Shown here piece after piece: positions 1 through 27,293 of a stretch of DNA of 32,000 nucleotides. Location: contig NZ_BBVD01000005.1 of the NCBI RefSeq assembly GCF_000964545.1, forward strand, positions 2,838 through 34,837, in the 5' to 3' direction. The position numbers were made by a program, and so were the translations under genes. The DNA is from Comamonas thiooxydans (GTDB lineage Bacteria > Pseudomonadota > Gammaproteobacteria > Burkholderiales > Burkholderiaceae_C). A model generated the notes under the pieces. It was not told the origin of the DNA and did no database searches. It was given only the letters and a program-made list of their open reading frames with translations. Within the stretch, counting starts at the first letter, position 1. Every line of letters starts with the position of its first letter.

Positions 1-2
1 AG

Positions 3-4010: not shown

Positions 4011-4025
4011 GTCCTGAATTTAGGG

Positions 4026-4112: not shown

Positions 4113-4302
4113 CCTTTAGCGAAAGTGCTCACGCCAGATAAGGCAGAGCCTGTTTATGAGCCCACGCACATCTTGATTCCATCACTCTCTTTGGGCAAAA
4201 TTTGCGTCACGTACCTGTTTTGCCGGGCCTGGGGTCACAGACTCCTTTCACTTCCTCAACTTGCCCAGGCATGACCAAATAGGTCACCGGCTTTTTATTC
4301 GC

Positions 4303-4335
4303 GCCCGCAGCAACTGCTTGCGGGCTTTTTCTTTT
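4303..4335 (+). terminator. rho-independent terminator abutting the IS3-family element
   Basis: Stem gcccgca(4303-4309)/tgcgggc(4319-4325), followed by tttttctttt. Confidence 0.6.
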
Positions 4336-4370
4336 GTCACAGGAGAAGCATCCTCGCTTTCCTGCACTAC

Positions 4371-9848: not shown

Positions 9849-10403
9849 CTTGAGTGAATTTCTGCTTTGGGTCGCAACCTCATGTCTGTGTCAAGTGACA
9901 GCAGACTTCCAGCAACCAATCGACCTGCAACTAACATCCACTGTCCGCTACTCAACTGAAACCCGTCGTTGAGAATTCGCCAGCATCGATCTTCGGATAG
10001 CTGCTACGGAGCGGTGACCGATAGGTCACGATGCAGCCATGAGCAGCAGCAATCGCTGCAAAGCGGCCGTTTGAACTAACTACTCGAACGACGGCAATGG
10101 GTCGACCTGAGCCTGTTGGGGCATTCAGAACCGGTCCTTCGAGCCAGCTCGCATGGCTGCACCGCGCAATCAACTATGGCGAGTTGTGACAAGCCACGGA
10201 TGTACAGCCCTTGGCGACTTCTATCCCACATGACTGCAAGGCATTTCGCTGAACGCGCGTGACAGAATGTCCTGTCTGTGCCTATTGGCGGCTCACCCGC
10301 TGCCATAGGCGTACTCTCTGTTCAGCTCTCACATCGTGGACGCTTATGGCCTGGTCGCATAAATCAATGTGAGATGCAAAACAGAGAATCCGACGCACAC
10401 TTC

Positions 10404-11624
10404 TCAGCTATCAGCAACTTCTTTAACCAGATACGGCCGAAATCCTGTCTCCTGCGGGAACAGCACTCGTGGAGAGCACCTCACGATATCTCCGTTGTGG
10501 AGCGAATGAACAACGGCGTCTTTCTGGGTTTGATGAGCCACTACGGTAGTTGTCGCATCTTGGCCCTTCGTCAAAGAAGCCCGGGTCTGCATGTCATCCT
10601 CCACACGAGCAACGTGATTGAACAGGGCTTGCAGATGCAGCGTGGGCCGTGCGATCAGGTACCCTTGAACGCCAGTCGCTCCAGCGGTTAAAGCCACATC
10701 GAGCTTCGCAGCAGAATCGATCCCTTCAACGATCACAGTCACCCCGTGATCGGCGCAAATCCCCACCATGCCTTGCAGCAGCCTCGCCGGCAGCTCACCC
10801 TCGGCGGTTTCTTCCAGCACCGACTTGTCGAGCTTGACGGTGTTGGCACGAACTTTGTTCAGGATGTCCAGCGAACCCGCTTCCTTGCCTATGTCGTCAA
10901 GCGCAATCCTGACACCCTGGAACTGTAGGTGATGAATCAGGCTGAGGGCGGATTTCTCTTCCGGAAAGGTGCTCGTTTCTGTGATTTCAAGCACCAGTCG
11001 CTGCGCCAAATTAGGTCGATCCCCTAGATACGTGAGAATCTCATCCCACCACGCCGCACTCACAAAGGAGCGAGCGGAAACGTTGCAACCCAGATTCAAA
11101 CCTTCACTGCCGGCCAATGTGCCCAGCGTGGTCCATAACACGCTACGGTCAAGACGCTCAACCAGCCCCAAGCGCTCCAAGGCCTGAATAGCATCTGGAA
11201 CCACATAGCTGAGACACGCAGCCTCGGGCGCAGTGCGGCGCAACAGGCATTCATAGTAAAGGGTTGGAGCAGACCCCGAGTATTCACGGGTCGCCACCGG
11301 CTGGAATACCAAGGCGAGGTTTCCCAGGCGCAGGTCATTCAGCAAGCAGCTGGCCAGATGCATATCGCTCTGGTAGTGCTGACGCCATATAGAGCGCAGG
11401 CCCCGTGCAGGAGGATATCGACGGCAGTCTGCGGTACGAGAACCTTCCAGCTGCGAATTTGTGCCATTGCCGGAAGCAGCGCCCAGGATCTGCGCTTCGA
11501 CCTGTAGATAGATCTGTTTCATGCCCCAGATCACCGGCACTTGCCCTATCGCTGCACAGATGCGCTCGGCTTCGCCGTGATACCCAGAGTCTTCTGCGGT
11601 CGAGAACTGGCCCGTGACCATCAA
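10404..11624 (-). CDS. EAL-domain protein (putative c-di-GMP phosphodiesterase), no GGDEF domain; start uncertain
   Basis: EAL-domain landmarks are present in order: FQPV...YYECLLR, NVSARSF, LVLEITET, RIALDDIG, KLDKS, VIVEGIDS, QGYLIARP. The N-terminal ~90 aa and C-terminal ~75 aa have no motif I recognise. Confidence 0.8.
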   Translation of the reverse strand: MMVTGQFSTAEDSGYHGEAERICAAIGQVPVIWGMKQIYLQVEAQILGAASGNGTNSQLEGSRTADCRRYPPARGLRSIWRQHYQSDMHLASCLLNDLRLGNLALVFQPVATREYSGSAPTLYYECLLRRTAPEAACLSYVVPDAIQALERLGLVERLDRSVLWTTLGTLAGSEGLNLGCNVSARSFVSAAWWDEILTYLGDRPNLAQRLVLEITETSTFPEEKSALSLIHHLQFQGVRIALDDIGKEAGSLDILNKVRANTVKLDKSVLEETAEGELPARLLQGMVGICADHGVTVIVEGIDSAAKLDVALTAGATGVQGYLIARPTLHLQALFNHVARVEDDMQTRASLTKGQDATTTVVAHQTQKDAVVHSLHNGDIVRCSPRVLFPQETGFRPYLVKEVADS

Positions 11625-12491: not shown

Positions 12492-12609
12492 GGTTCGTCT
12501 CAAACTAGATTTGAATACGAAGGACTTCCCGCCATCTTGGCCTGCTGGATACGCAGTGCCACGATGGATCGGCAAGCCAATTTCTTCGTCATTCATCAGG
12601 AGTCGTGCC

Positions 12610-13664
12610 ATGCAAACCATCGTCCGTGTTGGGGTAGATCTCGCAAAGAATGTGCTGCAGGTCCATGCAGTCGATGCTCAAGGGAGGATGGTCACTAACC
12701 GGGCCATCCAGCGCAGCAAGTTCTTGGCATGGTGTGCGCAATTACCTGCAGGGTGTCTGGTGGCCATGGAGGCTTGTGGTGGTGCGCACCACTGGTGTCG
12801 GGCTTGGATGCACGCATGATGGCAGCGGCACTGGTCGCACCCTATCGCATGCAGGGCAAGAGCGGTAAAAACGATGCCAATGATGCGGCTGCCATTTGTG
12901 AGGCAGCCAGTCGCCCTCAGATGCGCTTTGTCCCCGTTAAGACTCCAGAGCAGCAGGGCATACTATGTGTGCATCGGCTGCGCGAAGGGTTCAAAGAGGA
13001 ACGCACAGCATGCATTAACCGTATTCGAGGATTGCTCGCCGAGTTTGGCATTGTTCTGCCGCAAAGCCCCAAAGTCTTGCGCACCTATTTGCACGATATC
13101 TTGGAAGATGCGACCAATGACATCGCAGGCGCAGCCCGCATTGCGCTGCAGCGTGCACTCATGCATTGGCAAGAGCTCGATGAACATCTTCACTGGTGCG
13201 AGCAGCGTATTGCCGCTCACTGTAAAGAAGATGCACAGGTGCAGCGAGCTGCCGCCATCAAGGGCTTGGGGCCACTCACTGCATCAGCGATGGTCGCCAC
13301 TGTGGGCGACTTCAGGCAGTTCAAGAACGGTGCACAGTTTGCCGCCTGGCTTGGGTTGACGCCCAGACAGAATTCCAGCGGAGGCAAATCCAATCTGGGT
13401 GCCATCACCAAGCGAGGCGATAGTTACCTGCGCACTTTGCTGGTCCAAGGGGCCAAGGCCGCAGTGCTGACCGGCAAACACAACCTCGACCCGATCTCCC
13501 AATGGGTGATGGCCTTGAGGCAGCGCAGTGGCTGGCAAAAGGCCGCCGTGGCGTTAGCCAACAAAAATGCACGCATCCTGTGGGCGCTCATGACACAGGA
13601 GCGTACCTACGAAGCAGCCCATATCAGCGAACGCCCCAGGCCACCCGTCTCTGCCGTTGCCTGA
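12610..13664 (+). pseudogene. IS110-family recombinase/transposase (DEDD RuvC-like N-domain + C-terminal domain), reading frame broken near 12800-12815
   Basis: MQTIVRVGVDLAKNVLQVHAVD...VAMEACGGAHHWCRAWMHA* is in frame 1. It continues in another frame as GLDARMMAAALVAPYRMQGKSGKNDANDAAAICEAASRPQMRFVPVKTPEQQ...FAAWLGLTPRQNSSGGKSNLGAITKRGDSYLRTLL. AGGAG lies 8 nt before ATG 12610. Element boundaries were not determined. Confidence 0.8.
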
Positions 13665-13950: not shown

Positions 13951-14060
13951 TGTACAAGCGTTTACCTCACACTTTTTCCAGGTAAAACGTTGTACAAAAA
14001 CTCTTTCGGCTTTGGCGCCAAAGGAATGAGCATGTTCTTGTGTACAAGGATTTACCTCAC
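13951..14060. repeat. three copies of a TGTACAAG-NN-TTTACC(TCAC) motif: two direct, one inverted
   Basis: 13951-13970 (tgtacaagcgtttacctcac) and 14041-14060 (tgtacaaggatttacctcac) are identical at 18/20 positions. 13981-13996 (ggtaaaacgttgtaca) is an inverted copy and forms an imperfect palindrome with copy 1 across a 10-nt spacer (13971-13980). A perfect 14-bp palindrome ctttggcgccaaag lies at 14010-14023. Confidence 0.7.
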
Positions 14061-14112
14061 CCACCTGCCCTTTCGCTGCTGGTCTCTCAAGGTTGTGCAT
14101 GCCGAAACCTAG

Positions 14113-14472
14113 GTGATGTTTAGAGCACCTTACCCTGCACATTTGCCGCATCTGCAATACATCCTTGATGATCTGCGCTACAGCGATGCACAGCTCGCTA
14201 GGCTTCTAGACCTCAAGCCAGCTACCATCAAAAAATATCGGCGCGAGGGGCAAGCTCCTCGCGCCGTTCATTTGGCACTGTTTTGGGAATCACGATGGGG
14301 AATTTCTACCATCGACGCGATCGCCTTCAATCATGCAGCGGGCAACTACGCACTAGCCGAATCGCTCAAGCGCACAAATGCTAGGCTTGTCAAGCAAATC
14401 TTGACCATGGAAAAGGAGCTTGCGAGGCATAAAACCGCGCCCGCAAACGCTCCAGTTTTTCAGATTGGCTAA
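14113..14472 (+). CDS. small phage-type HTH regulatory protein (DUF3653-like pattern)
   Basis: AQLARLLDLKPATIKKYRREGQAPRAVHLALFWESRWG resembles the HTH plus 'AP..v.lal' pattern of small prophage regulators. The C-terminus is a coiled-coil-like helix. The family assignment is from memory only. Confidence 0.45.
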   Translation: MMFRAPYPAHLPHLQYILDDLRYSDAQLARLLDLKPATIKKYRREGQAPRAVHLALFWESRWGISTIDAIAFNHAAGNYALAESLKRTNARLVKQILTMEKELARHKTAPANAPVFQIG

Positions 14473-15188
14473 CAACCAATGCGAAATTGTCTATCACGAG
14501 CTTTACGTCGCTCTTCACGAATCCAATCCATGGTGTAACCACCACCGCCAATTCGCCCCAAGGAATCCAGCCAATTCACATGCTCATCTAGAGCTCGGCA
14601 TTCACCAGCATTCGCTCTACCTCCAGTGGGACGAGTTGCGACTGGAACCACTTGCTCAGCGGCAACTGCGTGCGCCCTATCCCGCTGCTGTCTTGCAATT
14701 GCTACTTGCTCCTCCCAAGAGACATTAGTCGGAACACGCGCAATGCGATCCATAAAACGCCCGTTGGCAGAGCATGGAACGCTTTCCCATGTGAGGTTGC
14801 CTTGAAAGTCTTTGCAGAGATAAATTTCCCGAGAGCTTGGCCCATTGCTTGGCTGCGCAATCTGCCTGCCACCTTCGCAAGGTGTAGTGCTGTAGCTATT
14901 TCCACACTGATAAATCTGGCCTGTAGCTTCGGTGCGAGGCTTTTCAGGCACCAAGACTCTTGGTGCAACGACAGTCTGCTCTGGCGGAGGTCGAGATGCA
15001 GGTAGTTGAGGAGCCGCCGGAGGAGGCCCAACTAAAAAGCGCAATATTTCAGACTGATATCTGTATACAAGTGCACCAGCCATAAGCACGGCAATCGTAA
15101 GAACGAGCTTTGCAAAAAAGCTCATTTCATTTTTCCCACTCGTGAATGGATTATCGCGCTGCCATCCACCAGGATCGTAATGTCCCAT
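14469..15188 (-). CDS. DUF4124-like membrane-anchored protein
   Basis: Strong RBS (gaGGAGGgggttATG). One TM helix (FFAKLVLTIAVLMAGALVY) and a Pro-rich linker. Two IY.C.....G......PC motifs are present (IYQCGNSYSTTPC, IYLCKDFQGNLTWESVPC). The C-terminus is CRALDEHVNWLDS...RKARDRQFRIGC. The stop overlaps the stop of the convergent 14113..14472 gene. Confidence 0.6.
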   Translation of the reverse strand: MGHYDPGGWQRDNPFTSGKNEMSFFAKLVLTIAVLMAGALVYRYQSEILRFLVGPPPAAPQLPASRPPPEQTVVAPRVLVPEKPRTEATGQIYQCGNSYSTTPCEGGRQIAQPSNGPSSREIYLCKDFQGNLTWESVPCSANGRFMDRIARVPTNVSWEEQVAIARQQRDRAHAVAAEQVVPVATRPTGGRANAGECRALDEHVNWLDSLGRIGGGGYTMDWIREERRKARDRQFRIGC

Positions 15189-15893
15189 AACCCCCTCCTC
15201 TTTCCCGAATCATAGGACAGAAGCGCTCCCGCACTACTCCCAAAGATTGAGCACTCTACGGTGCTCTAAGTGCTCGCCGCACGGCGTCAGCTGTCCGTGA
15301 CACGTCGCGCCCAGCACCATTCCCCGGAGTTTTCGCCGCTTCGGCCACGCTAAATCAGGAGCGGCCTACGGCCTTGTCCTTTCTCCGGGGGTATTCATAA
15401 AGCTTCGCTTTACAAAGCTTCCCCACTCCGAAACGCCATCCTGATACCGCTAAAGGCACGGCGAAGAACTCAGGGGAACGGTGCAAGCAAGGGACAGTTA
15501 AACGGGCAGCAGACAGTTGACGACCCGGCTCCGAATCTAGGGGCCCGGTACACCAGAAAGGCGGCACATCATGGCAATCGCAGCAAATTTCAGGAAGTAT
15601 GCAGAGGCAATGGCGCTGCAACTGGTGCTGCCTTTCGGCCGGCCGATCTGGAACACTTCGCGCCCCACAACGCGCCTCGGCCGCGAGATCCGCTCATACA
15701 TCACCAAGGCCATAGGCGCGCGGCCTGGTTGAATATCCGGCGCTCCCTGCAATCCCTCAGTGGTGGAAGGATGCTCAGACACGCGCGCGAGCCTTCGTTA
15801 AGTTTGCGAAGGAAGGTCAGCTCAAGATCGACTTGAGCCAGCGAAAACCGACCATCAATAAGCCAAACTAGAAAATCCGGCTATCACTGCTTT

Positions 15894-16640
15894 TTATGCA
15901 ATCTGTTCACCGACGATAATTTTTGCTTCATGATATGGAGCACACCTTTTAAGATAGTCCTTGCAGAATCCTGAAAACGTCTCGGAGGGTTTAGTCATAG
16001 ATTCCATAATCTCCAGTGCCTCTCTTATTTTTCTCTTTTTGTTCTGCTTCTTGATATCTGTCTCAGCATCTTCGTAATCCTTTATGGCTTCTTCAAGTGA
16101 TTCGCTAAAACTATGCAGGCTTACTAAAATATCTGCCCTGGGCCTCATCAATCTTACAGAATTCAGTCCACAGACGCTTATAGTCCGCTCGCCGATTTCC
16201 TTGTGAATATTATTTACTGCGATTTTTATGTCAGTGTAATGGAATATATCTTCCGGATCAGAATCATAGGGGTTAATAATAGGATAACTTACCGTGTCAT
16301 GTCCGCCTTTGCGGTCATTGCATTTTCTACATGCCGGAAGGAAGTTTTCCCAATTAAATGCTAGCGCAGGATAGATCGACTTAGGGGCAAAATGTTCCAC
16401 CTCGATATTTCCACTCTCCCCGGGCTTTGTCTCACAAAACGCACATTTCTCAAGCGAACTTTTAAATAAGACGCTTTTTATTTCTTGGTGCCGATAATGA
16501 ATAAGTAGTTTTTCTTTCTGCTCTGCAGGAATTTTTGAGTAACCCCCAAAAACAGTGACTGCCTCGATTAGACTAGTTGTCCACGAATTTTCATTATTTA
16601 TCAGCACGGCAGGCTTATTATCACGACTTAGCTTAATCAT
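15894..16640 (-). CDS. HNH endonuclease, PtuB-like (candidate Septu nuclease subunit)
   Basis: The zinc-ribbon HNH core is CAFCETKPGESGNIEVEHFAPKSIYPALAFNWENFLPACRKCNDRKGGHD (16317-16445). Start ATG 16640 overlaps the upstream ATPase stop by 8 nt. Composition is AT-rich, unlike the host. The gene call is firm; the PtuB assignment is by architecture and motif only. Confidence 0.75.
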   Translation of the reverse strand: MIKLSRDNKPAVLINNENSWTTSLIEAVTVFGGYSKIPAEQKEKLLIHYRHQEIKSVLFKSSLEKCAFCETKPGESGNIEVEHFAPKSIYPALAFNWENFLPACRKCNDRKGGHDTVSYPIINPYDSDPEDIFHYTDIKIAVNNIHKEIGERTISVCGLNSVRLMRPRADILVSLHSFSESLEEAIKDYEDAETDIKKQNKKRKIREALEIMESMTKPSETFSGFCKDYLKRCAPYHEAKIIVGEQIA

Positions 16641-17886
16641 TTGACAGCGCTACCATCGATGCATATCTTGTATTTAAGACGGTCAAAATGGAATCACTCG
16701 GGTGAGCCACTTCAGATAGTCTGAAAATAGCATTCTTTAAGCCTTCAATAGACCCCTCTTGGATTTTATCAAAAGATTCAGAAATAAGTATTTCGTAGTC
16801 TTTATTCTCTAAACTAACTACACCCATAACTTCCGATAGAATATGATCAGTGCTCCAACCAGAAAATCTCTTAGCCGTTGGCTTAAGAGTTAATTCACTT
16901 GTGCCTGCCTCCCTATTCATTATAATTACTTCATTTTCCTTCGCAGATGAAAGCAAATGCGGAGAATGAGTTGTTACTATAAATTGAATATTCGGAAATA
17001 AGCTCTCCAATCCATCTCGCAGTGTGAATTGCCACTCAGGATGCAAGTGAAGATCAAGCTCATCCACTAAAACTGAACCCGTAGCATTGGCAGCCAACCT
17101 TTCACCTGCACTCCGAGTCGCTTCAACCCATTGAAATATATTAGCGACTATTGATAATACTGCCTGAAAGCCGGCAGAGAGCTCCTCCATGTAGCACTCT
17201 TCACCATAAATTGAAAATATTGGCTCAAAGTCTTTCTCGGTTCTAATATAAGAGAAATTACTATTAAATGGCGCCAGAGCGGGGAGCTTTTCAATTAATC
17301 TTTTCCAATTTTCTCTTTCTTCTGTCGCCCATTCCTTATCAATCATAAAATATCGATTAATGAACCACTGCTTAATATCTATAGGATTTACTCCATATAA
17401 TGACTGTGTTCCATTTGATGAATATTTTTGGCGCTGCTGCGCAAGCCCCAGCTCTCGAGTCATCCCATCTATCTGATGATATTTAATACTTCTTTCTGCT
17501 CCAATAAATAGTGGGCAGAACCCATCCAGCTTTTTATCGGTTTCATGTAGCAAGACAGATTCCCGGCCCATCTCCCTGTCCGGGTGATTCCATGCCCTTA
17601 TTGAATGTCTTCTATAGCCCCTGGGATCGATAGAGTTCCCACCAATTCCAACTCTCTTTTTTTCTCCTAAAACCATCATATCGATCCAGAACTTAGAGCC
17701 CTCATGAAATCTGGAATATTCAAAAGCGGCATGGTTTAGACAGTGAGATATTCCAGCCAGAATTGAAGTTTTACCGCAGCCATTTGGCCCGGCGATAAAA
17801 TTGAAATTTTTATTAAACTCAACATCCAGCGTTTTGAACTGTCTAAAATTTTCCAGATGTAGTTTCTCGATGTAGCTTGATGTCAA
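16633..17886 (-). CDS. ABC/SMC-like AAA15/21-type ATPase, PtuA-like (candidate Septu ATPase subunit)
   Basis: N-terminus IEKLHLENFRQFKTLDVEF. Walker A GPNGCGKTS (17764-17790), signature-like EELSAGFQ, Walker B SVLVDELDLHLHPEWQ and H-loop FIVTTHSPHLL are all present. The start is apparently TTG 17886, with no strong RBS. There is no TOPRIM or nuclease domain. Confidence 0.75.
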   Translation of the reverse strand: MTSSYIEKLHLENFRQFKTLDVEFNKNFNFIAGPNGCGKTSILAGISHCLNHAAFEYSRFHEGSKFWIDMMVLGEKKRVGIGGNSIDPRGYRRHSIRAWNHPDREMGRESVLLHETDKKLDGFCPLFIGAERSIKYHQIDGMTRELGLAQQRQKYSSNGTQSLYGVNPIDIKQWFINRYFMIDKEWATEERENWKRLIEKLPALAPFNSNFSYIRTEKDFEPIFSIYGEECYMEELSAGFQAVLSIVANIFQWVEATRSAGERLAANATGSVLVDELDLHLHPEWQFTLRDGLESLFPNIQFIVTTHSPHLLSSAKENEVIIMNREAGTSELTLKPTAKRFSGWSTDHILSEVMGVVSLENKDYEILISESFDKIQEGSIEGLKNAIFRLSEVAHPSDSILTVLNTRYASMVALSND

Positions 17887-17961
17887 TTTATACCGCCATT
17901 TTTACGTGTACAACAAGATTAAGACAACACAAAAACAATATTCGTCAATCTCTTAGGAATT

Positions 17962-17990
17962 AATATAGCCTCATAAGAAAAAGTGAGCAA
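17962..17990 (-). promoter_or_regulatory. candidate sigma-70 promoter for the ATPase-HNH operon
   Basis: On the minus strand: TTGCTC (17985-17990), a 17-nt spacer, then TATATT (17962-17967), about 75 nt upstream of the ATPase start and inside the AT-rich leader. Pattern match only. Confidence 0.3.
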
Positions 17991-18128
17991 TCGCAAACAA
18001 TATTTGCAGATGATCCCAAAATTTCGAGATTAAGGAAAGTTCATCACTCGCGTAAGACCACCTAACTCGCTCAGATATGGTCATGCGCAGCCACTGGTAC
18101 AACCCGCCAGCTCCGTCGAGATACAAAC

Positions 18129-19517
18129 TCAGTTATCCATCAGGACAGAGCGCACCTGAGAATTGCGCCTGGCCAGGGCTTCCAGATAGCCACCTGCCTG
18201 TTGCTGCTGTTCTTGGCGTACCTGGGCCACTTCCTGGGGCATTGGCGCGTTGCTGTAGCGGGTGTTGCGGCCATCGCTGCGGGAGCCAGTCGCTGCATCG
18301 ACCACAAGGGGCCTGTCCTGGCCGCCGGTGTTCAGGTATGGCGCGTCGCAGGTGACAGGGCGGACTACACCGTCGAACTTCACTGTGACCATGCAGTTCG
18401 CCATGCGCTTGACGCTGTAGCCAGCAGCCTCCAGGTCTTCGCTTGTGACCTCAAACATGCGGCGGGTACCGTCGCTGACGATGAAGAGCGTGATGCTTTT
18501 GTCCTTCTTCGACAGATGCCCGGCAACGTGTAGCTGCTTGCCGAACAGCGGTTCTTTGGTCTGAGGTACGGCCTCAGCTGGGGCCGCGGTGGCCTGCTGA
18601 GGCTCCGAAGGCTTAGGCTCGGTCGGCGTGGGTGCTGGTGACGCGGCGACAGGGGTTGCAGCAGCACCAGGTGCGGGGCCAAGGACGCGCGGCTTGACGG
18701 GTGGCGAAGGCACGACCTTGCGGCCCCAGACATCGTGCTCACCATCAGGCCAAAAGGCCCAGATCACCAGAAGCACCGACAGGACTAGCCACAACTTCTT
18801 GAAACGGTTGAATTTGACGATCATGGGGTTGACGTCAGTCACCCCAGATTCAGCAGAGCCGCTGCTTTGCGTGTTGCTGCGGTACAGGCCGAAATACTGG
18901 CTCTTGTATTCGCGTTCGTCGGTCTGGATGACTGCACCGCGATAGCCCGCATGTACCTTGCGGATGTAGCTCTCTTTCCTGCCCAGGATGTCGGCCTTGC
19001 GGCACTTGATGAGCGTGGCGATGAGCTGCGCGATGGGCTGGTTGATGTCGCGAAAGCTTTGCGTCATCAGCAGCACATCGGCGTTGTAGTGTCGATGCAG
19101 CTTGAACCACTGCACGACGCTTTCAGGTGTGCCTAGCTTGGGCAGTGCGACGTGACATTCGTCGATAACGTACAGTGGGCCTTGGTTTTTGGTGCCGCGC
19201 CATTCGCTGTAGTAGTCCCAGACGGTACCGAATGTAAAAACGTTCTCGGACTGGGGAATGGGCTCTTTGTCCGTCCAAAGCTGAAACGCTTCCTGCTCTG
19301 CAATGTTGGCCGCGTTCCAGTCGCCGAGCTGGGGCGTTGGCCTGGTGCGAACTTCGACCAGGTCGCGATAACTCGGGTCGATGGCCGCGAGAGCATCGAT
19401 GTTCAGCGGCAGGTTTGTGATGACCTTGCGGCCGGCCTGGAGCGCGGGCAGCACGTGATAGGCCACTGCCTCATAGCTTTTGCCAGAGCCAGGGATTCCC
19501 TCTAGTCCATTGATCAT
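18129..19517 (-). CDS. zonular occludens toxin (Zot)-like / filamentous phage assembly ATPase pI
   Basis: MINGLEGIPGSGKSYEAVAYHVLPAL... is the Zot-family N-terminus with a P-loop. It has Walker B LYVIDECH, one TM (LWLVLSVLLVIWAFW), a Pro/Ala-rich linker and a C-terminal periplasmic domain. The start overlaps the upstream gene stop (ATGA at 19514-19517). Confidence 0.85.
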   Translation of the reverse strand: MINGLEGIPGSGKSYEAVAYHVLPALQAGRKVITNLPLNIDALAAIDPSYRDLVEVRTRPTPQLGDWNAANIAEQEAFQLWTDKEPIPQSENVFTFGTVWDYYSEWRGTKNQGPLYVIDECHVALPKLGTPESVVQWFKLHRHYNADVLLMTQSFRDINQPIAQLIATLIKCRKADILGRKESYIRKVHAGYRGAVIQTDEREYKSQYFGLYRSNTQSSGSAESGVTDVNPMIVKFNRFKKLWLVLSVLLVIWAFWPDGEHDVWGRKVVPSPPVKPRVLGPAPGAAATPVAASPAPTPTEPKPSEPQQATAAPAEAVPQTKEPLFGKQLHVAGHLSKKDKSITLFIVSDGTRRMFEVTSEDLEAAGYSVKRMANCMVTVKFDGVVRPVTCDAPYLNTGGQDRPLVVDAATGSRSDGRNTRYSNAPMPQEVAQVRQEQQQQAGGYLEALARRNSQVRSVLMDN

Positions 19518-19903
19518 GAGCCAAGCCTTGTGAACGGGATGAGCTGGAGCGCCAACCGTATGCCGATAGCCGTGACGACGATGCCCACGGCTGTGCCGAT
19601 GCCCGAGAGCTGCATCACAGTGACGATCTCGGGCGGCAGGTTGATGTTGTCGGCAATGCCCTTGAGCGGTGACACATCGACCGCATCAAGGGCGACTTTG
19701 ATGATCTCGAAGAGCTTTTCAATCAGCCAAGACACGGCGTCCGTGAACATGTCCCAGGCGGCCTTGATGATGGCCTTGATAAGGTCTGCAGCCCACTTGT
19801 ACCAGGCATCAACGACATCCTTGGCCCATTTGAAATACTCAGTCAGAGACTCCGTGAGCCAGGAGAAAAATGCATCAATACGACGCTTGAGCCAGTCGAA
19901 CAT
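19514..19903 (-). CDS. pVI-like minor coat / DUF2523-type membrane protein of filamentous phage
   Basis: It occupies the position between the pIII-like and pI genes. ATG 19903 is preceded by GGAGG (cGGAGGctgagcATG). The protein is MFDWLKRRIDAFFSWL... with a hydrophobic C-terminus GIGTAVGIVVTAIGIRLALQLIP. The ORF-track start 19984 would overlap the pIII-like gene. Confidence 0.6.
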   Translation of the reverse strand: MFDWLKRRIDAFFSWLTESLTEYFKWAKDVVDAWYKWAADLIKAIIKAAWDMFTDAVSWLIEKLFEIIKVALDAVDVSPLKGIADNINLPPEIVTVMQLSGIGTAVGIVVTAIGIRLALQLIPFTRLGS

Positions 19904-19905
19904 GC

Positions 19906-20811
19906 TCAGCCTCCGAAGATCAGACGACGCGCGGTAATGAGTGCGGTCAGGATGGTGATGGCCTTCAACACTTCCCAAAGCCACAACGGGGGCGAGATGT
20001 CATGCGTACCGAAATCACCCAACGGCCTAAAGTTGAAATCAACGATCCAGACTGGTGCAGATCCGCCGTCCGCGATCTTTGGCATCAGGGCCATAGCGAG
20101 CGAGCCAAGGCCGGAGTTCTTGATGCCTGCACTGCTTTGCTTCCAGACCTCTACAGGCCCCTGCGGATACTTAGGCTCATAGAGCTTGCCGAAATCACCA
20201 GCCCCCGTGCCTGGCAGGCCAGCTTTGCCGGGGCCGCCACCCGTGTCGTTGCCGCAGTCGGTAATGGTGCAGCCGTCGCCATCACCATCGCCATTGCCGC
20301 TTCCAGTGCCTGAACCTGTGCCGCTCTGGCTATCTTTGCCTGGCACCGGATTGGCGTTGACCGCAGCGCAAAGAAAGCCATCCTTGTTTTTGGCCTTGGC
20401 GCAGTACTGGTCTTGACTGATCTTGTCTGTCGAAGTCGTGGTGCCTGTGACGTTGCCGTTAGCGTCCTTAGTGGTCTTGGTCGTGGTGGACTCACAGACG
20501 CCGTTAGAGCATGTCGTCGTAGTCTTTCCTTCGGTTTTGGTGCCATCGCTGTTTGTGGTGGTACCCGTCCAATCCACGCCAGTTGCGCTGGCTGCAGGGA
20601 TGCAGACATCTTTGCCGTTCACCGTGCCGGTCTGCCCCGCACAACGCTTGTCGATAGGCTCGGCCTTTTCTGCGGGTGGTGGCGCATCAGGCGCAGAAGG
20701 TTCACTAGGTGTGCCGTAGCTGCACTTGCCGCCTGTGAGCGTGCCCATGCCCTTGTACAGGGTCTTGCCGGTGCTATCGGTTACACCTGTGCTTGGGCCG
20801 GCATTAGCCAT
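19906..20811 (-). CDS. pIII-like adsorption / minor coat protein (TspB C-terminal-domain-like); possibly frameshifted at its 5' end
   Basis: Thr/Gly/Cys-rich N-terminal part, a glycine linker GSGTGSGNGDGDGDG and a C-terminal membrane anchor WLWEVLKAITILTALITARRLIFGG. Its position is immediately upstream of the pVI-like and pI genes. As called, the protein lacks a signal peptide. Confidence 0.6.
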   Translation of the reverse strand: MANAGPSTGVTDSTGKTLYKGMGTLTGGKCSYGTPSEPSAPDAPPPAEKAEPIDKRCAGQTGTVNGKDVCIPAASATGVDWTGTTTNSDGTKTEGKTTTTCSNGVCESTTTKTTKDANGNVTGTTTSTDKISQDQYCAKAKNKDGFLCAAVNANPVPGKDSQSGTGSGTGSGNGDGDGDGCTITDCGNDTGGGPGKAGLPGTGAGDFGKLYEPKYPQGPVEVWKQSSAGIKNSGLGSLAMALMPKIADGGSAPVWIVDFNFRPLGDFGTHDISPPLWLWEVLKAITILTALITARRLIFGG

Positions 20812-20933
20812 GCAACCTTGACTACAGCCAGGAAACTTAGGTTGGTCCCAGAAGCAACGGCCAAGACACCCGCAGAACCTGCAACGACCTTGGCACCGTA
20901 GCGACGGGCGATAGAACGAGTTTTATTGAACAT
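20781..20933 (-). CDS. 50-codon ORF encoding a signal-peptide-like sequence, overlapping the pIII-like start in another frame
   Basis: Own translation: MFNKTRSIARRYGAKVVAGSAGVLAVASGTNLSFLAVVKVAWLMPAQAQV*. A 1-nt shift near 20812-20816 would fuse ...FLAVVKVA to MANAGPST..., giving pIII a leader with an A-x-A site. It does not look like a major coat protein because it has no basic C-terminus. Confidence 0.3.
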   Translation of the reverse strand: MFNKTRSIARRYGAKVVAGSAGVLAVASGTNLSFLAVVKVAWLMPAQAQV

Positions 20934-21331
20934 GATTGGACGGGCGTTGGTCCTGTCGGAGATTCGCTTTGTGGTGCTGCGCTCACAAGTAGCTAGACCC
21001 GGCTCCGGTCAAGAGCTGCCGACTACCGCAGACTTCTGAACGACGGCTGGAGGTTGAACTGGGTCATCTTCGTGAATCGGTCTGGACGATTGCAAACACG
21101 GACGTCAGCTCTTGGTCGCAAAGCGACTTCAACCGGCGGGGTATCCCTTAACACCAAACTCTCCGCCATGGAGGTCGAGAAACGCGGGCCTACGAGGAGT
21201 TGGGCCATTTGGTTCGGTAGAACATCACTCCATCATGTTCTTTGCACACTCAAGCGGATGAGCACGGATCTTGCTTAACTGACTTGTAGCCGTTTTTGCA
21301 ATGAAGCAGATTCGGCTGTATCAGGACAACG

Positions 21332-21406: not shown

Positions 21407-22627
21407 ATGACGGGCTTCCGAAACTTTTTACAAGCTGGGCATGCACCAACCTTGGGCGCATCATTCTTCTATTTCGCCTGCTCATGCGGCATTTGGGTCA
21501 TCAATGGTGCAATGGCCCCTTTTCTCAGCGAGAGCTTTAATCTGACACCGGCGCAGAAGGGCCTGATGCTATCCATCCCGATCTTCGCGGGGTCGCTGAT
21601 GCGCTTTCCGCTGGGATTACTGGCTCAGTACATCGGTAGAAAGAATGCCACCCTGGTTGAGATGGTGGGCATCGCCATCGCAATGTTGTACGGCTACTTC
21701 GCCGTTGACTCCTTTGGTGATCTGCTGGCCATGGGCGTTTTGCTAGGCATTGCTGGTGCCAGCTTCGGCGTAGCTCTTTCACTCGGTTCAGGCTCATTTC
21801 CACCGCGCTACAAGGGACTAGCAATGGGACTAGTTGGTGCCGGCAACATCGGAACGGCCTTTGCCGCACTGCTGGCACCGCAGTTGGCACAGGCCTTTGG
21901 CTGGCAGGCCGTATACGGCTTTGCGGCTCTAGGTATTCTGGTGCCTATGGTCGTAATGATTGTGTTTGCCCGAGAACCCGCAGACCGTGATGCACATGCC
22001 ACTCTGCGTGACCATGTTGCCTGCCTTTTCGAGAAGGACGGCTGGGCTTTCAGCCTAATTTATGCCGTCACCTTTGGCGGCTTCATTGGCTTAGCCACTT
22101 TTCTGCCAAGCTACTTTTATGACCAATTCGGTGTGAGCAAAGTTGAAGCTGGGCAGTTGACCATGCTGGCTGCGTTTATGGGTGCAACTACGCGCATTTT
22201 TGGCGGCTGGCTGTCGGATCACTGGGGCGGAGTGAACACGCTCACAGCAGTGCTGGTCGTCGTCTTCATTAGCTTGCTGCTTTGCGGACTCAGCGGCCAC
22301 TCCTTAACTCTCACAGTGCTGTTCTTCTTGGTATGTTTTGCCGCCTTGGGAGCTGGCAATGGTGCCTTGTTCCAATTGGTTCCTCTGCGGTGGCCAACAA
22401 CCACTGCTGTGGCCGGCTCCATGATCGGAGAGTTGGGCGCTTTGGGCGGCGGCTTGATCCCTGCAAGCATGGGTTTGTCGCAACAGCACACCGGCAGTTA
22501 CTTCTCAGGATTCGCTGTGTTTGCCTGCTTTTCACTAGTCATGTTGGTGATGCTGCGCTACATGCAACTGCGCTGGACACGCACCTGGGCGGAGAAAGGC
22601 GGTCGCGCACGCACCGTTCCGGCTTGA
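21407..22627 (+). CDS. MFS nitrate/nitrite transporter (NarK/NasA family)
   Basis: 406 aa and about 12 predicted hydrophobic spans. It has an MFS loop motif (GSLMRFPLGLLAQYIGRKN) and Gly-rich NarK-type motifs (GAGNIGTAFAALLAP, AALGAGNGALFQLVP). It is located beside nirBD. Confidence 0.85.
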   Translation: MTGFRNFLQAGHAPTLGASFFYFACSCGIWVINGAMAPFLSESFNLTPAQKGLMLSIPIFAGSLMRFPLGLLAQYIGRKNATLVEMVGIAIAMLYGYFAVDSFGDLLAMGVLLGIAGASFGVALSLGSGSFPPRYKGLAMGLVGAGNIGTAFAALLAPQLAQAFGWQAVYGFAALGILVPMVVMIVFAREPADRDAHATLRDHVACLFEKDGWAFSLIYAVTFGGFIGLATFLPSYFYDQFGVSKVEAGQLTMLAAFMGATTRIFGGWLSDHWGGVNTLTAVLVVVFISLLLCGLSGHSLTLTVLFFLVCFAALGAGNGALFQLVPLRWPTTTAVAGSMIGELGALGGGLIPASMGLSQQHTGSYFSGFAVFACFSLVMLVMLRYMQLRWTRTWAEKGGRARTVPA

Positions 22628-22635
22628 TTCAAAGC

Positions 22636-24393
22636 TCAGCGTGGCAGGAACAGTAACCAGTAAAGCAGCGCCACATTGAGCACAACGCTGAAGGCGAGCG
22701 CTGTCTTCCAACCGAATGCTGGATCGCGCTCAAGGAGTGGACTGGACGCTTGCGGCAATAGTGGCCGCGCAGCTCCGCGCTCTAACGCCAGCAACATTTC
22801 TTCGGCCGTCTCGAAGCGCTGTGCAGGATCGCGAGCGATCGCCTTAAGAACGATGGCATCCAGCCAGATTGGTACTTGTGGGCTGTGACGACTGGGAGGT
22901 ATTGGGTCACGCCAGTAGCGCCCTCTCTGGTAAGCGATAACCTCACCATAGGGCAGACGTCCACTTGTCAATAGCTGGTACAGCGTCACGCCCAAAGCGA
23001 ACAGGTCGCTGCCCGCACTTGCTGGCACTGGCGGATCGTCCCACTGCTCGGGGTTCATGTAGCTAGCAGTACCCGCATGTAAGGCACGCAGTTCGGGAGG
23101 CTCTCGGCCAGTCAGCGCAACGCCAAGGTCGAGCAGACGCAACACCCCATCAACACCGCAGTGAAGGTTCGCGGGCTTGACGTCGCGGTGGATAACACCC
23201 TGTCGGTGCAGGTAACCCAGCACACGCGCGGCCTGCTGACCTATGGCAAGCACCTGGTCTACACCAGGCTGATGTCGTCGCTCCAGCCACTGAGAAAGCG
23301 TCTCGCCCTCCACCCATTCGTACAAAAGATAGAAAGCTGATGGCAGATCCACCGGCGCAGCATGCAGCCGAACCAGATGTCGGGCTGCCGCTCCGGTCTG
23401 CAGATGGCCGGCCACCCATGCTTCATGGGCCAGAGCAGCCCATTCCTGGCGGTCATGGGCACGCTGTGTGTGCAGCGTTTTGAGCGCATGGCGCTGGCCG
23501 CTGCGCTCATCCAGCACTCGGTACACGCGGTAAATGCCACTGTCGGCCACTAAAGCCTCCACACGCAGCCCATCCACCAGACTGCCGGGCCTGAGCAGAG
23601 GCAACGGCGGCAGGGACTGTGCGCGACGCATAGTGTCGTCCAGGGTTGCTTCCTTCACGCCCAGCACGCGAACGACCACGGCTGTGAGATTGTCGCGGCT
23701 GCCGTTGCGCCACGCGGCATCAGCCAAGCGTTCGGCCAGGGACTGTGCACCGCCCTCGCCCGCCCACTGGGCAAACTCGCGCGGCTTGACGTCATTGTGT
23801 ATGCCGTCTGACAGCAGTACAAAAATGTCGCCGGGAACCACTTCTCCTTGCCGATAGTCAATGCTGACCCTATCCTCCAGGCCGATGGCGCGCGCCAGGC
23901 GGTGCGCGAAGTCCACGCCGCCCATCACATGGTCCTCCGTCAGCTGCTCGATCTGCCCTTGTCGCAACAGGTAGGCACGGGTATCGCCTACATGGGCCAG
24001 CGTGAAACTCTGCCCACGTAGAACCAGAGCTGTCAGCGTGGTCAGACCATAGGCCGGCTGACGTCGCCGATTGATGCCATAGAGCCAAGCGTTCTGTGCA
24101 CCCACGATGCGGTCCAGCGCCACGGTGGGCTCCCAGGTGACTGGCGTGCAAAAGAAGTCGCGTGCCAAACAGGTTACCGTGGTCTGTGCAGCTTCACGGC
24201 CCCAGCCACCCGCACTGACACCATCGGCAACGGCGGCGAGCATGCTGGCGTGGCCCGAACTTTCGTCCTGCAGTTGTACTGCCGCGAAGTCCTCGTTGTC
24301 CTGCGCACGACCGGAGCGTGAGACCCATCCGATATCCAGTTCAAAAGGCATGAGCGAATCCGTAATGGCATTCCTTGCAATCGCGCCCCACAA
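22636..24393 (-). CDS. bifunctional PP2C-type Ser/Thr phosphatase + Hanks-type Ser/Thr protein kinase with a C-terminal TM anchor
   Basis: The PP2C part has QDNEDFAAV, AVADGVSAGGWG, GDTRAYLL, LLSDGIHN and RDNLTAVVVRV. The kinase part has RHALKTL, HRDVKPANL, DLGVA and GTASYMNPEQ. The C-terminal hydrophobic helix is ALAFSVVLNVALLYWLLFL. The start is either TTG 24393 or ATG 24351 (MPFELDIGW...). Confidence 0.85.
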   Translation of the reverse strand: MWGAIARNAITDSLMPFELDIGWVSRSGRAQDNEDFAAVQLQDESSGHASMLAAVADGVSAGGWGREAAQTTVTCLARDFFCTPVTWEPTVALDRIVGAQNAWLYGINRRRQPAYGLTTLTALVLRGQSFTLAHVGDTRAYLLRQGQIEQLTEDHVMGGVDFAHRLARAIGLEDRVSIDYRQGEVVPGDIFVLLSDGIHNDVKPREFAQWAGEGGAQSLAERLADAAWRNGSRDNLTAVVVRVLGVKEATLDDTMRRAQSLPPLPLLRPGSLVDGLRVEALVADSGIYRVYRVLDERSGQRHALKTLHTQRAHDRQEWAALAHEAWVAGHLQTGAAARHLVRLHAAPVDLPSAFYLLYEWVEGETLSQWLERRHQPGVDQVLAIGQQAARVLGYLHRQGVIHRDVKPANLHCGVDGVLRLLDLGVALTGREPPELRALHAGTASYMNPEQWDDPPVPASAGSDLFALGVTLYQLLTSGRLPYGEVIAYQRGRYWRDPIPPSRHSPQVPIWLDAIVLKAIARDPAQRFETAEEMLLALERGAARPLLPQASSPLLERDPAFGWKTALAFSVVLNVALLYWLLFLPR

Positions 24394-24587
24394 GAGTGCC
24401 TATCGATGCGGACACCGCACCGAACTGAAGCATCGGTAGATCAGAATCAGCAGCACCTTCGTTTGGAACCACGGTACTGCCAAGCTCCATGAGCAAGAAA
24501 ACGATTGGCATAAAAAATGCTTTATTCATAGCAACGGTCTGGGCAATGTAGCTCCGACAGTTGAGGACAACGGCGTTTGCGACATAC

Positions 24588-24635
24588 CTGGCCAAAGGTG
24601 GCTAGGTCATGGCGCAAGCGCCTTTTTGTTTTTTT
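24588..24635 (+). promoter_or_regulatory. nirB leader: hexaloop hairpin followed by a short hairpin plus U-tract (candidate antitermination target)
   Basis: Hairpin ctggcc[AAAGGT]ggctag (24588-24605, one G-U pair). Then ggcgc-aa-gcgcc (24611-24622) followed by tttttgttttttt (24623-24635). The whole element ends about 55 nt before the nirB ATG at 24690. Confidence 0.4.
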
Positions 24636-24689
24636 AACCGTGAGAGGGAGCGTAACTCGCTTCACTCCCCTCCGACGAAGGGATATCGC

Positions 24690-27275
24690 ATGCCCCACGC
24701 GATTCATAAAACACCACGAAAGCTCATCGTTGTTGGTAACGGCATGGTGGGTCAACGCTATGTCGAAGCTCTAACCGAACAATTTCCCAACCTTTGCGCA
24801 GCAGGATGGGAAGTGACGGTACTTGGTGAGGAGCCGCGCCCGGCATACGACCGTGTCCACCTGTCGGAGTTCTTCAGTGGCCGCAGCGCCGACGATCTGT
24901 CCCTGGTCCCAGAGGGCTTCTACGACCGCCCGGGCCTGACGCTGCGCCTCAATGCCCGCGTTGCCTCCATCGAGCGGCGCGATCGTACGCTGCAACTGAC
25001 CAATGGTGAAGTACTGGCCTTCGACAAGCTGGTGCTTGCAACGGGCTCCTCACCCTTTGTACCAGGTGTGCCGGGACGCGACCGCCCTCACTGCTTTGTC
25101 TACCGAACCATCGAGGACCTCGAAGCCATGCAGGCCTCGGGGGCCAAGTCCCAAAGCGGCGTAGTGGTGGGCGGCGGGCTGCTGGGGCTGGAATGTGCCA
25201 AGGCCTTGCGCGACATGGGGCTGCAAACCCATGTCGTGGAGTTCGCACCACGCCTGATGATGGTCCAAGTGGACGAAGGCGGCGGTCGCGTGCTGCGCAC
25301 CAAGATCGAATCGCTGGGCGTGCAGGCTCACACCAGCCGCAACACTGTTGAGATCACCGATGGCGCCACGGCGCGCCATCGCATGGTGTTCGCCGAAGGA
25401 ACTTATCTCGAAACCGACATGATCGTGTTCTCGGCCGGCATCCGGCCGCGCGACGAACTGGCACGTCAATGCATGTTGGCCATCGGTCCGCGCGGAGGCA
25501 TGGTCATTGACGACCACTGTCGCACCAGCGATCACGACATCTATGCCATCGGTGAATGCGCGGCCTGGAATGAGCAGGTCTTCGGTTTGGTCGCGCCAGG
25601 CTACGATATGGCCCGCGTTGCCGCAGCTCACTTGGCAGGACAGGCCGATGCCACGTTCACGGGCGCCGACATGAGCACCAAACTCAAGCTCATGGGTGTG
25701 GACGTAGCCAGCATCGGGGACGCACTTGGCAAGACGCCGGGTAGTCGCAGCTTTAACTACACCGACGAGCTGCAGCAGATCTATAAGAAAATCGTTGTCA
25801 GCGAAGACGGCAAGCGCCTGCTGGGCGCCGTGCTGGTGGGGGATGCCGCAGAGTACGGCACGCTTCTGCAGATGGCGCTCAACAATATGGAGTTGCCCGA
25901 TGCACCCGGCCAGCTCATCCTGCCAACCAGCGACGGCGCGGCCAAACCAGGCCTCGGCGTGGACGCCCTGCCTGACGCTGCGGTACTGTGCTCGTGTAAC
26001 AACGTCAGCAAGGGGCAGTTGTGCTCAGCTATCGCTGGCGGTGTGCAAACCATCAGCGAACTTAAATCCTGCACCAAGGTGGGGACCTCCTGCGGCGGCT
26101 GCGTGCCGCTGGTTACCCAGGTACTCAAGGCCGAGCTCAAGCGCCAAGGCGTAGCTGTCAACAACCACCTTTGCGAGCATTTTCCGCACTCGCGCCAGGA
26201 GCTTTATCACCTGGTGCGCGTTGGCGAAATCCGAACCTTCGCGCAATTGCTGCAGCAACATGGCAAAGGTCATGGCTGCGACATCTGCAAGCCCACGGTG
26301 GCCAACATCCTGGCCAGTTGCTGGAACGACTTCGTTCTCGACCGCAACGGTGCGCCGCTGCAGGATAGCAACGACTACTTCCTGGGCAATATCCAGAAGG
26401 ACGGCACTTATTCCATCGTCCCACGCGTGCCCGCAGGTGAGATCACGCCTGACCAACTGATCGTGATTGGTAAGGTCGCCAAGGACTACGGCCTCTATAC
26501 CAAGATCACGGGCGGCCAACGCATCGATCTGTTCGGAGCCCAAGTCCACGAACTGCCGCTGATCTGGCGTGAGCTGGTGGATGCAGGCTTTGAATCGGGC
26601 CATGCTTATGGCAAGTCGCTGCGTACGGTCAAGAGCTGCGTAGGGTCCACCTGGTGTCGCTATGGCGTGGACGACAGCGTTGGCCTAGCCATCGAGCTGG
26701 AGAACCGCTACAAGGGCCTTCGCTCGCCACACAAAATCAAGTTCGGCGTTTCCGGCTGCACACGCGAATGCGCCGAAGCACAGGGCAAGGACGTGGGGGT
26801 GATCGCCACAGAAAAAGGCTGGAACCTCTATGTCTGCGGCAACGGCGGCATGAAACCACGCCACGCCGAGCTGCTGGCAGCCGACCTTTCCAAGGATCAG
26901 TTGGTACGCCTGATCGACCGCTTCCTGATGTTCTACATCCGTACCGCTGATCGGCTGCAGCGCACCAGCACCTGGCGCGACAACCTCGAAGGCGGCCTGG
27001 ACTACCTCAGGGCCGTTGTGGTCGACGACAGCCTGGGTCTTGCCTCCGAGCTGGAGGCGCAAATGGCCCATGTCGTGGGCACCTACGCTTGTGAATGGAA
27101 GAAGGCCGTGGACGACCCCGCCGTCGTCCGGCGCCTGCGTACCTTCGTCAACAGCGACGCAGGCGACGACAACGTTGTCTTCGTTCAGGAGCGCGGCCAG
27201 ATCCGACCCGCTACCCAAGCCGAAAAGCACTCACGCCTCAAAGGCATCCCGGTGTTGGTCGAAGCCAGCGTTTGA
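24690..27275 (+). CDS. nirB: assimilatory NAD(P)H nitrite reductase large subunit
   Basis: FAD/NAD fold KLIVVGNGMVGQ, BFD-like 2Fe-2S region CSCNNVSKGQL...CGGC and siroheme/4Fe-4S motifs SCVGSTWCRYG and GVSGCTRECAEAQ. ATG 24690 is preceded by gaaggga. The ORF-track start 24609 adds an implausible leader. Confidence 0.95.
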   Translation: MPHAIHKTPRKLIVVGNGMVGQRYVEALTEQFPNLCAAGWEVTVLGEEPRPAYDRVHLSEFFSGRSADDLSLVPEGFYDRPGLTLRLNARVASIERRDRTLQLTNGEVLAFDKLVLATGSSPFVPGVPGRDRPHCFVYRTIEDLEAMQASGAKSQSGVVVGGGLLGLECAKALRDMGLQTHVVEFAPRLMMVQVDEGGGRVLRTKIESLGVQAHTSRNTVEITDGATARHRMVFAEGTYLETDMIVFSAGIRPRDELARQCMLAIGPRGGMVIDDHCRTSDHDIYAIGECAAWNEQVFGLVAPGYDMARVAAAHLAGQADATFTGADMSTKLKLMGVDVASIGDALGKTPGSRSFNYTDELQQIYKKIVVSEDGKRLLGAVLVGDAAEYGTLLQMALNNMELPDAPGQLILPTSDGAAKPGLGVDALPDAAVLCSCNNVSKGQLCSAIAGGVQTISELKSCTKVGTSCGGCVPLVTQVLKAELKRQGVAVNNHLCEHFPHSRQELYHLVRVGEIRTFAQLLQQHGKGHGCDICKPTVANILASCWNDFVLDRNGAPLQDSNDYFLGNIQKDGTYSIVPRVPAGEITPDQLIVIGKVAKDYGLYTKITGGQRIDLFGAQVHELPLIWRELVDAGFESGHAYGKSLRTVKSCVGSTWCRYGVDDSVGLAIELENRYKGLRSPHKIKFGVSGCTRECAEAQGKDVGVIATEKGWNLYVCGNGGMKPRHAELLAADLSKDQLVRLIDRFLMFYIRTADRLQRTSTWRDNLEGGLDYLRAVVVDDSLGLASELEAQMAHVVGTYACEWKKAVDDPAVVRRLRTFVNSDAGDDNVVFVQERGQIRPATQAEKHSRLKGIPVLVEASV

Positions 27276-27293
27276 CCCCCTAAGGAGCACCTC

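Follow-up and report, generated by a model that had tools for sequence, protein, structure and literature searches.

Cargo genes can follow zot in filamentous phages: in CTXφ, the ctxAB operon lies immediately 3' of zot and in the same orientation. Filamentous prophages of the Vibrionaceae have a defined accessory-gene locus, and 8.5% of such loci hold complete defence systems (PMC11630473). The CTX-I inoviruses of Vibrio have hypervariable regions (pHVR) of 1.9 ± 1.3 kb between zot and xafT that contain PARIS, restriction-modification, CBASS, Abi, dGTPase or OLD genes, and degraded inovirus elements that retain the pHVR have been noted (PMC12715192); the XafT proteins fall into the DUF3653 family (PMC6744903). 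KKP and toxin-antitoxin modules are found in Pf phages (PMC11341870, PMC12328805). Septu, the defence system at issue here, has its own mechanistic literature (PMC12819146, PMC13096335), in which stand-alone PtuAB is a hexameric, inflammasome-like, ATP-binding complex whose DNA nicking is lowered by ATP and which is reportedly sensitised by a phage tail-fibre protein (PMC12819146). Here, we analysed a 32,000-nt stretch of Comamonas thiooxydans DNA (contig NZ_BBVD01000005.1; hereafter the window), in which a sequence-only reading had placed an ATPase-HNH cassette as cargo directly behind the zot-like gene of a filamentous prophage. The cassette does sit there, nested between conserved inovirus genes. 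We consider it likely that this bare ptuA-ptuB pair was captured into a hypervariable slot of a Comamonas inovirus and that the host phage has decayed since, with Septu left intact and apparently transcribed.

A Septu cassette in the slot behind zot

By sequence, the cassette is a stand-alone type I Septu system and not a retron I-A. As in type I Septu (structures 8ee4 and 8ee7), an ATPase gene and an HNH nuclease gene with a Cys4 and H-N-H core overlap, here by 8 nt with ptuB immediately downstream of ptuA, the proteins have full-length PADLOC matches (PtuA with model PDLC00279 at 6e-197 over residues 1-417, PtuB with PDLC00336 at 1.4e-114), and there is no third gene at this locus. Both genes are intact. 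The best PDB relatives of the two proteins are PtuA 8ee4 and retron-associated PtuA and PtuB chains, and the retron I-A models of PADLOC score far lower than the Septu models. We assign the cassette as stand-alone because the 242-bp gap between zot and ptuA contains no reverse transcriptase open reading frame (ORF) and no Rfam non-coding RNA match. PtuA also matches Pfam AAA_15 and AAA_21, and the motifs expected of both proteins are invariant in homologues down to 55% identity: Walker A (G33-S41), the signature (L236-S-x-G239), Walker B (D275-E276) and H307 of the H-loop in 10 homologues of PtuA, and C66xxC69, H83, N99 and C104xxC107-N108 across those of PtuB. Unlike type I Septu of known structure, likeness to solved PtuA (8ee4) is restricted to the C-terminal ATPase half (1.9e-25), and the PtuA described here therefore belongs to a distinct subfamily, which is common in Aeromonas, Vibrio, Pseudomonas and Shewanella. 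By analogy with the published systems, we infer that the cassette is a defence system triggered by infection: the PtuA oligomer would be an ATP-bound ABC-type scaffold restraining the PtuB HNH nuclease, infection by another phage would release or activate PtuAB, and DNA nicking and/or tRNA-Tyr cleavage would then block phage replication.

The closest PtuAB homologues (PtuA 79-83% identical), one of them from Pseudomonas sediminis, are bare two-gene units that have housekeeping genes on either side and lie away from phage genes, and DNA homology with the closest cassettes is confined to 15885-17908, that is, the two ORFs and 22 nt upstream. A DNA search of GenBank phages with the 7.4-kb region gave ptuA as its sole match, at 67% in the tailed Burkholderia phage KS9, and no related inovirus; the search with the Zot protein returned distant inoviruses only (at most 46% identity over half of the protein).

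The islet that holds the cassette is an insert of 2,304 bp relative to relatives with an empty site, with a guanine-cytosine (GC) content of 0.40. In what follows, related loci have L numbers (L001, C. testosteroni NFYY023; L002, C. testosteroni ATCC 11996; L011-L026, IMG/VR inoviruses) and sequencing runs have X numbers. In DNA alignments, homology to L013, L014, L025 and L026 ends at 15788-15842 and at 18128-18131. On the zot side it breaks at the zot stop codon (18130/18131), and the far border, 15826/15827, lies 67 bp beyond the ptuB stop, the islet taking the place of the native 3' end of orfX, a conserved inovirus gene convergent with zot. A contig of run X16 (a wastewater metagenome) with single-nucleotide polymorphisms of its own fuses 15826 directly to 18131 with zero shared letters at the joint. 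The flanks have a GC content of 0.545 and 0.588 (backbone 0.55-0.59), and the four 500-nt windows from 16001 to 18000 have 0.37-0.41, compared with 0.49-0.64 in all others of the 32 kb. The compositional jumps reported by the sequence-only reading at both borders are thus real, but the exact borders are those given above. It had placed the start of the islet about 60 bp after the zot stop, which fits the GC jump but not the break in homology at the stop itself; as the initial 90 bp of the islet (18041-18130) still have a GC content of 0.54, the jump is seen near 18040-18070 and not at the stop. No recombinase, insertion sequence (IS) end or direct repeat had been visible at either edge, and our search there for a recombinase gene, an IS end and flanking direct or inverted repeats likewise found none, with repeat matches at chance level only. 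The window contains no transfer RNA genes, Rfam families or dif-like site.

Related phage DNA continues on both sides of the islet. The segment 18128/18131-20854 (zot, pVI and part of pIII) has 84-92% DNA identity to L011-L014. Beyond the islet, 15240-15788 on the orfX side is 96.7% identical to L013, 15185-15826 is 84-88% identical to L025 and L026, and 14067-15201, with the genes for a 239-aa membrane-anchored protein and a 119-aa helix-turn-helix (HTH) protein, is 76-80% identical to L002, L012, L024 and L025. At the protein level, Zot is 95-96% identical to that of L011 and L012 and 76-86% identical in C. testosteroni NFYY023 and ATCC 11996, and a glyoxalase gene in the flank has 94.6% DNA identity to ATCC 11996. 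In L002, L012, L024 and L025 the 239-aa protein is 61-66% identical and the HTH protein 91-98%. The phage backbone beyond the islet excludes that the zot module was inserted later, next to an islet already in place. Nor was the islet found at this position independently of phage genes. As had been noted, the cassette is co-oriented with the pIII-like, pVI-like and pI genes, all on the minus strand. The frame of orfX (MAIAANFRKYAEAMALQLV...) is conserved in five relatives (L013, L014, L019, L025 and L026) and has no Pfam or PHROG match; we rejected the small zot-strand ORFs at 15355-15782 as backbone genes, the conserved frame being orfX on the opposite strand. The C-terminal tail of orfX differs in each relative, and the variable slot hence eats into its 3' end.

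The slot behind zot is hypervariable, and between the same flanks it holds Septu, an OLD nuclease, a SIR2-like protein or nothing. The sequence-only reading had proposed both that this is a site for accessory genes and that related genomes with and without the islet would map its borders, and both expectations are borne out: the slot is empty in L013, L014, L019 and the X16 contig and holds other defence genes elsewhere. The zot ORF of L013 runs to 7023 and the orfX ORF that meets it to 7025, in L014 the gap is about 2 nt, and in these two and L019 orfX alone separates zot from the 239-aa gene. L012, with a Zot 95% identical, encodes in the slot, on the strand opposite to zot, a SIR2-like protein of 473 aa (Pfam SIR2_2; PADLOC candidate PDC-S25, 3.7e-82), and this phage is complete-looking, with Rep_trans/phrog_453, a major coat protein (phrog_6548), pIII, pVI, Zot and a DUF3653 (XafT-like) gene. 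The slot of ATCC 11996 (L002) holds a 606-aa OLD-family nuclease (PADLOC Old, 1e-33). All three cargos have a lower GC content than the backbone (0.40 and 0.49 against 0.58). In distant relatives (Zot about 63% identical), zot is followed at once by a 239-like gene, an HTH gene or a small serine recombinase; the 239-like gene stands directly after zot in L015-L018 and L035-L037.

Some related loci deserve separate mention. In L002 (10001-10804), zot is broken by an internal deletion (the equivalent of window 18764-19249 is missing and nothing lies upstream of window 19411), and the OLD, 239-aa and HTH genes remain; it is a second relic with its cargo retained. The complete-looking related prophage of L001 has Gabija (966-4348; GajA, E = 0) adjoining a repressor-like gene, with a C-terminally short GajB (446 aa against a 559-position model), and its zot is followed by a resolvase gene and by type I restriction genes (S and R). 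Given the short GajB and the undefined prophage ends, the Gabija and restriction genes are only candidates for further cargo of the same slot and may instead be flanking chromosome. A small serine recombinase (Resolvase and HTH_7, about 200-260 aa) recurs at or near the zot-distal end of the clade (L001 11778-12392, L011 7853-8515 and L013 7647-8423; also L015, L016, L019, L020, L023, L035-L037 and L039) and may be its integrase; in L011 the next two genes after it encode an alpha/beta-hydrolase and SpoT/RelA. The window relic is without it. The DUF3653 gene, at 9877-10260 beyond the HTH gene, occurs only in L012, with none in the window, and is a hint that some of the clade may integrate in an Xer-dependent way; many other members have the small serine recombinase instead.

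Table 1 Features of the Septu islet and of the phage genes around it (window positions)
Feature	Position	Strand	Description
119-aa HTH, repressor-like	14113-14472	+	Orientation opposite to structural genes; weak Xre-like HTH match
239-aa membrane-anchored protein	14469-15188	-	Conserved inovirus backbone
orfX	15571-15871 (approximate)	+	Conserved inovirus gene, convergent with zot; frameshifted pseudogene here
Septu islet	15827-18130		Homology breaks against L013/L014/L025/L026, X16 joint, GC content
ptuB	15894-16640	-	HNH nuclease, 248 aa; PADLOC and PDB PtuB matches
ptuA	16633-17886	-	ABC/SMC-type ATPase, 417 aa, TTG start; PADLOC, Pfam and PDB matches
zot-ptuA non-coding stretch	17887-18128	-	242 bp; AT-rich 17887-18040; presumed promoter site
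zot/pI morphogenesis ATPase	18129-19517	-	Intact, 462 aa; Pfam Zot 3.7e-26, phrog_197 1e-73
pVI-like minor coat gene	19514-19984	-	DUF2523; 91-95% identical to L011-L014
pIII fragment	19906-20922	-	C-terminal ~300 codons; frame read by hand
pVIII (major coat) 5' fragment	20851-20937	-	First ~28 codons, joined to mid-pIII

The relic and its chromosomal setting

Judged from its gene content, the resident element is a phage relic and not a functional filamentous prophage. Of the carrier proposed earlier, the inovirus backbone stands, but this backbone belongs to a relic without a Rep or single-stranded DNA (ssDNA)-binding gene, with truncated pVIII and pIII and a frameshifted orfX. Phage homology runs from 20937, just upstream of the pVIII start, to 14067. 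No homologue of Rep (Rep_trans, Phage_CRI), of the ssDNA-binding gene or of other upstream phage genes was found in the window; Rep and ssDNA-binding genes are present in the relatives L001, L011, L012 and L013. Compared with L011 and L012, 711-752 bp are deleted (L011 4075-4785 and L012 3339-4090 have no counterpart in the window), and codon ~28 of pVIII is fused to codon ~160 of pIII. The signal peptide and the N-terminal ~160 codons of pIII are gone and its C-terminal two thirds are kept, the fragment aligning to residues ~155-468 of the L001 pIII; the pIII-like ORF at 19906-20811 (minus strand) matches phrog_4544 at positions 267-501. The pVIII fragment corresponds to L011 4074-3988 (95%), its outer end being the last base with phage homology, and its L012 homologue is a major coat protein (phrog_6548, 5e-21); a 50-codon ORF lies at 20781-20933 on the minus strand. 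In orfX, 2 bp are deleted after 15713, where variants from runs X28, X12 and X15 have an extra 'GA'. Zot, pVI (for which gene callers place the start at 19903, giving 129 aa), the 239-aa gene, the HTH gene and both Septu genes are intact. The X28 variant, about 96% identical, has the same ptuB-orfX junction, an intact orfX and a zot contig, and the association of Septu with this inovirus is therefore not confined to one clone.

The relic lies next to narK, which starts at 21407. The flank 21407-27698 is a nitrate/nitrite assimilation cluster with a NarK-like MFS transporter and NirB/NirD-like reductase genes, and a 585-aa PP2C phosphatase/Ser-Thr kinase fusion is encoded on the opposite strand between narK and nirB. 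An IS110-family transposase at 12511-13664 (plus strand), up to about 13848, adjoins the relic; it is split over two frames, with the DEDD N-terminus at 12511-12819 and the rest at 12729-13664, and the public contigs identical to the window all stop at 13848, as expected for a repeated element. We rejected this transposase as the vehicle of the islet: it is a neighbour only and is not common to any related phage locus. A 20-nt direct repeat, TGTACAAG(C/G)(G/A)TTTACCTCAC, occurs at 13951-13970 and 14041-14060, with copies 90 bp apart, in a window-specific stretch just outside the end of phage homology at 14067. Next to the IS110 element, an EAL-domain ORF (10404-11624, minus strand) has an odd low-complexity N-terminus of about 90 residues with overlapping ORFs and may be damaged. 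Positions 1-5000 form a second region of lower GC content (0.49-0.54), probably another island, with an IS3-type integrase-core fragment at 4371-4964 (rve/rve_3) and two ORFs without a family match (2572-3093 and 3320-3748).

Transcription and origin of the islet

In four wastewater libraries labelled RNA-Seq (X21-X24), contigs cover only 15738-17893, and single contigs lie inside ptuA in X27 (a leaf metatranscriptome) and in X25 and X26 (RNA-labelled). The RNA-type contigs halt at 17893 and none reaches zot, and in X21-X27 nothing was found on zot, pVI, pIII, the 239-aa gene or the HTH gene; one RNA-type contig has an rRNA-like chimeric end. DNA metagenomes cover the whole region evenly. Because the RNA-type libraries cover the Septu genes only and the DNA libraries cover all genes evenly, the data suggest that Septu transcription begins in the region upstream of the cassette and that the phage genes are silent. 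The sequence-only reading had asked whether the cassette has its own promoter or is read through from zot; the contigs suggest an own promoter, but the candidate put forward for it (17962-17990) has a poor -35 box (TTGCTC, a 3/6 match) and is absent from the output of our sigma-70 consensus scan. A second candidate, TTGTCT-17-TAAAAA just upstream of 17893, is weak, would give a near-leaderless TTG-start mRNA and is not claimed.

In the account that we favour, a bare stand-alone type I Septu cassette would have been captured where the convergent zot and orfX meet, probably while the phage was still mobile. Decay would have followed, with loss of the replication module, the pVIII-pIII deletion fusion and the orfX frameshift, and the element would have ended as a relic fixed in the chromosome, next to the narK-nirBD genes of nitrate/nitrite assimilation. 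Several results weigh against parts of this account. The exact 25-mer across the zot-islet junction is absent from IMG/VR and JGI metagenome contigs, with no intact Septu-bearing inovirus among them, and the Septu-bearing contigs that can be followed at the pVIII end all have the same deletion or the narK junction. The RNA evidence consists of assembled contigs of low-depth metagenomic libraries, mostly labelled 'RNA?', in which contig depth is a poor measure of expression, and the sigma-70 scan found no strong site upstream of ptuA on the cassette strand. A scan of IMG/VR with PtuA gave one match, at 50% identity.

Septu could also have inserted after the prophage had decayed, into dead chromosomal phage DNA, and never have been carried in a filamentous virion. 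Such a late insertion would fit the lack of an intact Septu-bearing phage in IMG/VR, JGI metagenomes and Logan look-ups, the contigs 100% identical to the window that share its truncated pVIII/pIII and narK junction, and the homologous cassettes that insert elsewhere as bare two-gene units at ordinary chromosomal sites. However, the insertion lies exactly where close relatives, one of them complete-looking, hold other defence genes, and a lineage about 4% diverged has the same junction with orfX still intact. This argues for a capture earlier than at least part of the decay, and we hold a late insertion to be rather unlikely. Very unlikely, in our view, is an islet at the joint of two elements, that is, of a prophage ending in zot with another starting in orfX-239-HTH, or of prophage and chromosome. 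Integrated CTX-type phage genomes do begin with the repressor and end after zot (PMC12715192), the 239-HTH pair of L024 directly follows a GNAT acetyltransferase gene, possibly of the host, at a predicted prophage end, and the orfX-239-HTH block of L025 is paired with a very different zot (27%). Yet zot and orfX directly adjoin and converge in L013 and L014, with 1-2 nt between them, and are adjacent also in L019, the 239-like gene directly follows zot in the seven distant loci named above, a single 8.2-kb phage contig (L026) that has an L012-like Rep module ends in orfX-239, and a dif-like site is missing from the window.

The function of the cassette allows another reading, in which PtuAB serves the phage through addiction or stabilisation, or through superinfection exclusion of rival inoviruses, and is retained in the relic by post-segregational toxicity. 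Pf accessory modules of the toxin-antitoxin type regulate production of their own phage besides acting in defence (PMC11341870, PMC12328805), and PtuAB becomes toxic to the host when its retron partner releases it (PMC12819146). Against this, stand-alone Septu is described as broad-spectrum anti-phage defence (PMC12819146, PMC13096335) and the same cassette family occurs at non-phage chromosomal sites, and we regard a phage-serving role as improbable. An extension of the capture account is doubtful as well: the zot-orfX convergence could be a dedicated, recombinase-free capture site that swaps bare defence cassettes (Septu, OLD and SIR2-like genes) with base-precise borders and no repeats, and live members of this Comamonas/Burkholderiales inovirus clade would then carry them from strain to strain in their filamentous virions. 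Such a site, if real, would point to a novel mechanism of capture, perhaps one linked to structures formed in ssDNA replication or packaging.

Comparison with described systems

The sequence-only reading took an inovirus to be an unusual vehicle for a defence system. This can no longer be maintained, given that post-zot defence regions and degraded inoviruses that keep their cargo have been published (PMC11630473, PMC12715192), as has the cargo of Pf phages (PMC11341870, PMC12328805). The term 'septu' does not occur in PMC11630473 (a negative that covers the main text of this paper and does not extend to PMC12715192), and a literature search combining Septu and inovirus terms returned only an unrelated Xylella paper. 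The Comamonas locus leaves current concepts unchanged, but it adds a betaproteobacterial clade, that of Comamonas, to the Vibrio and Pseudomonas cases published for filamentous phages that carry anti-phage systems. The locus also provides a base-resolved example of one slot, at the zot stop, with Septu, OLD, SIR2-like or nothing among close relatives, and shows an expected end state, a decayed phage with an intact and apparently expressed defence cassette. Annotators in search of defence genes would do well to inspect the islets next to zot in 'cryptic' inovirus fragments.

A close parallel is the pHVR or accessory hotspot of Vibrio, with which the locus shares a variable slot right after zot, between morphogenesis and lysogeny/regulatory genes, an insert of about 2 kb (2.3 kb here, against a mean of 1.9 ± 1.3 kb), defence genes that include OLD, and degraded phages with their cargo retained. 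It differs in its betaproteobacterial host, in having orfX and the 239-aa gene as flanks, in a DUF3653 gene that is present only in the relative L012, and in lacking a dif-like site at this locus. With the Pf accessory modules of Pseudomonas aeruginosa (KKP, PfiAT) it has in common an inovirus accessory genome with defence or toxin-antitoxin-type modules expressed from the prophage, but the systems and their genome positions are others, and Pf4 and Pf6 are active phages as opposed to a relic. CTXφ likewise has a co-oriented cargo operon, ctxAB, directly after zot (also PMC12715192), although its cargo is a toxin and the phage is functional and Xer-dependent. As far as they are described through PMC11630473, the P2/P4-type hotspots (Rousset et al. 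2022) are also fixed slots, flanked by conserved phage genes, in which unrelated defence systems alternate from one close relative to the next, but they belong to tailed double-stranded DNA phages and satellites with much larger genomes. The arrangement is already described in kind, and what is found here is Septu in the post-zot hypervariable slot of a Comamonas relic.

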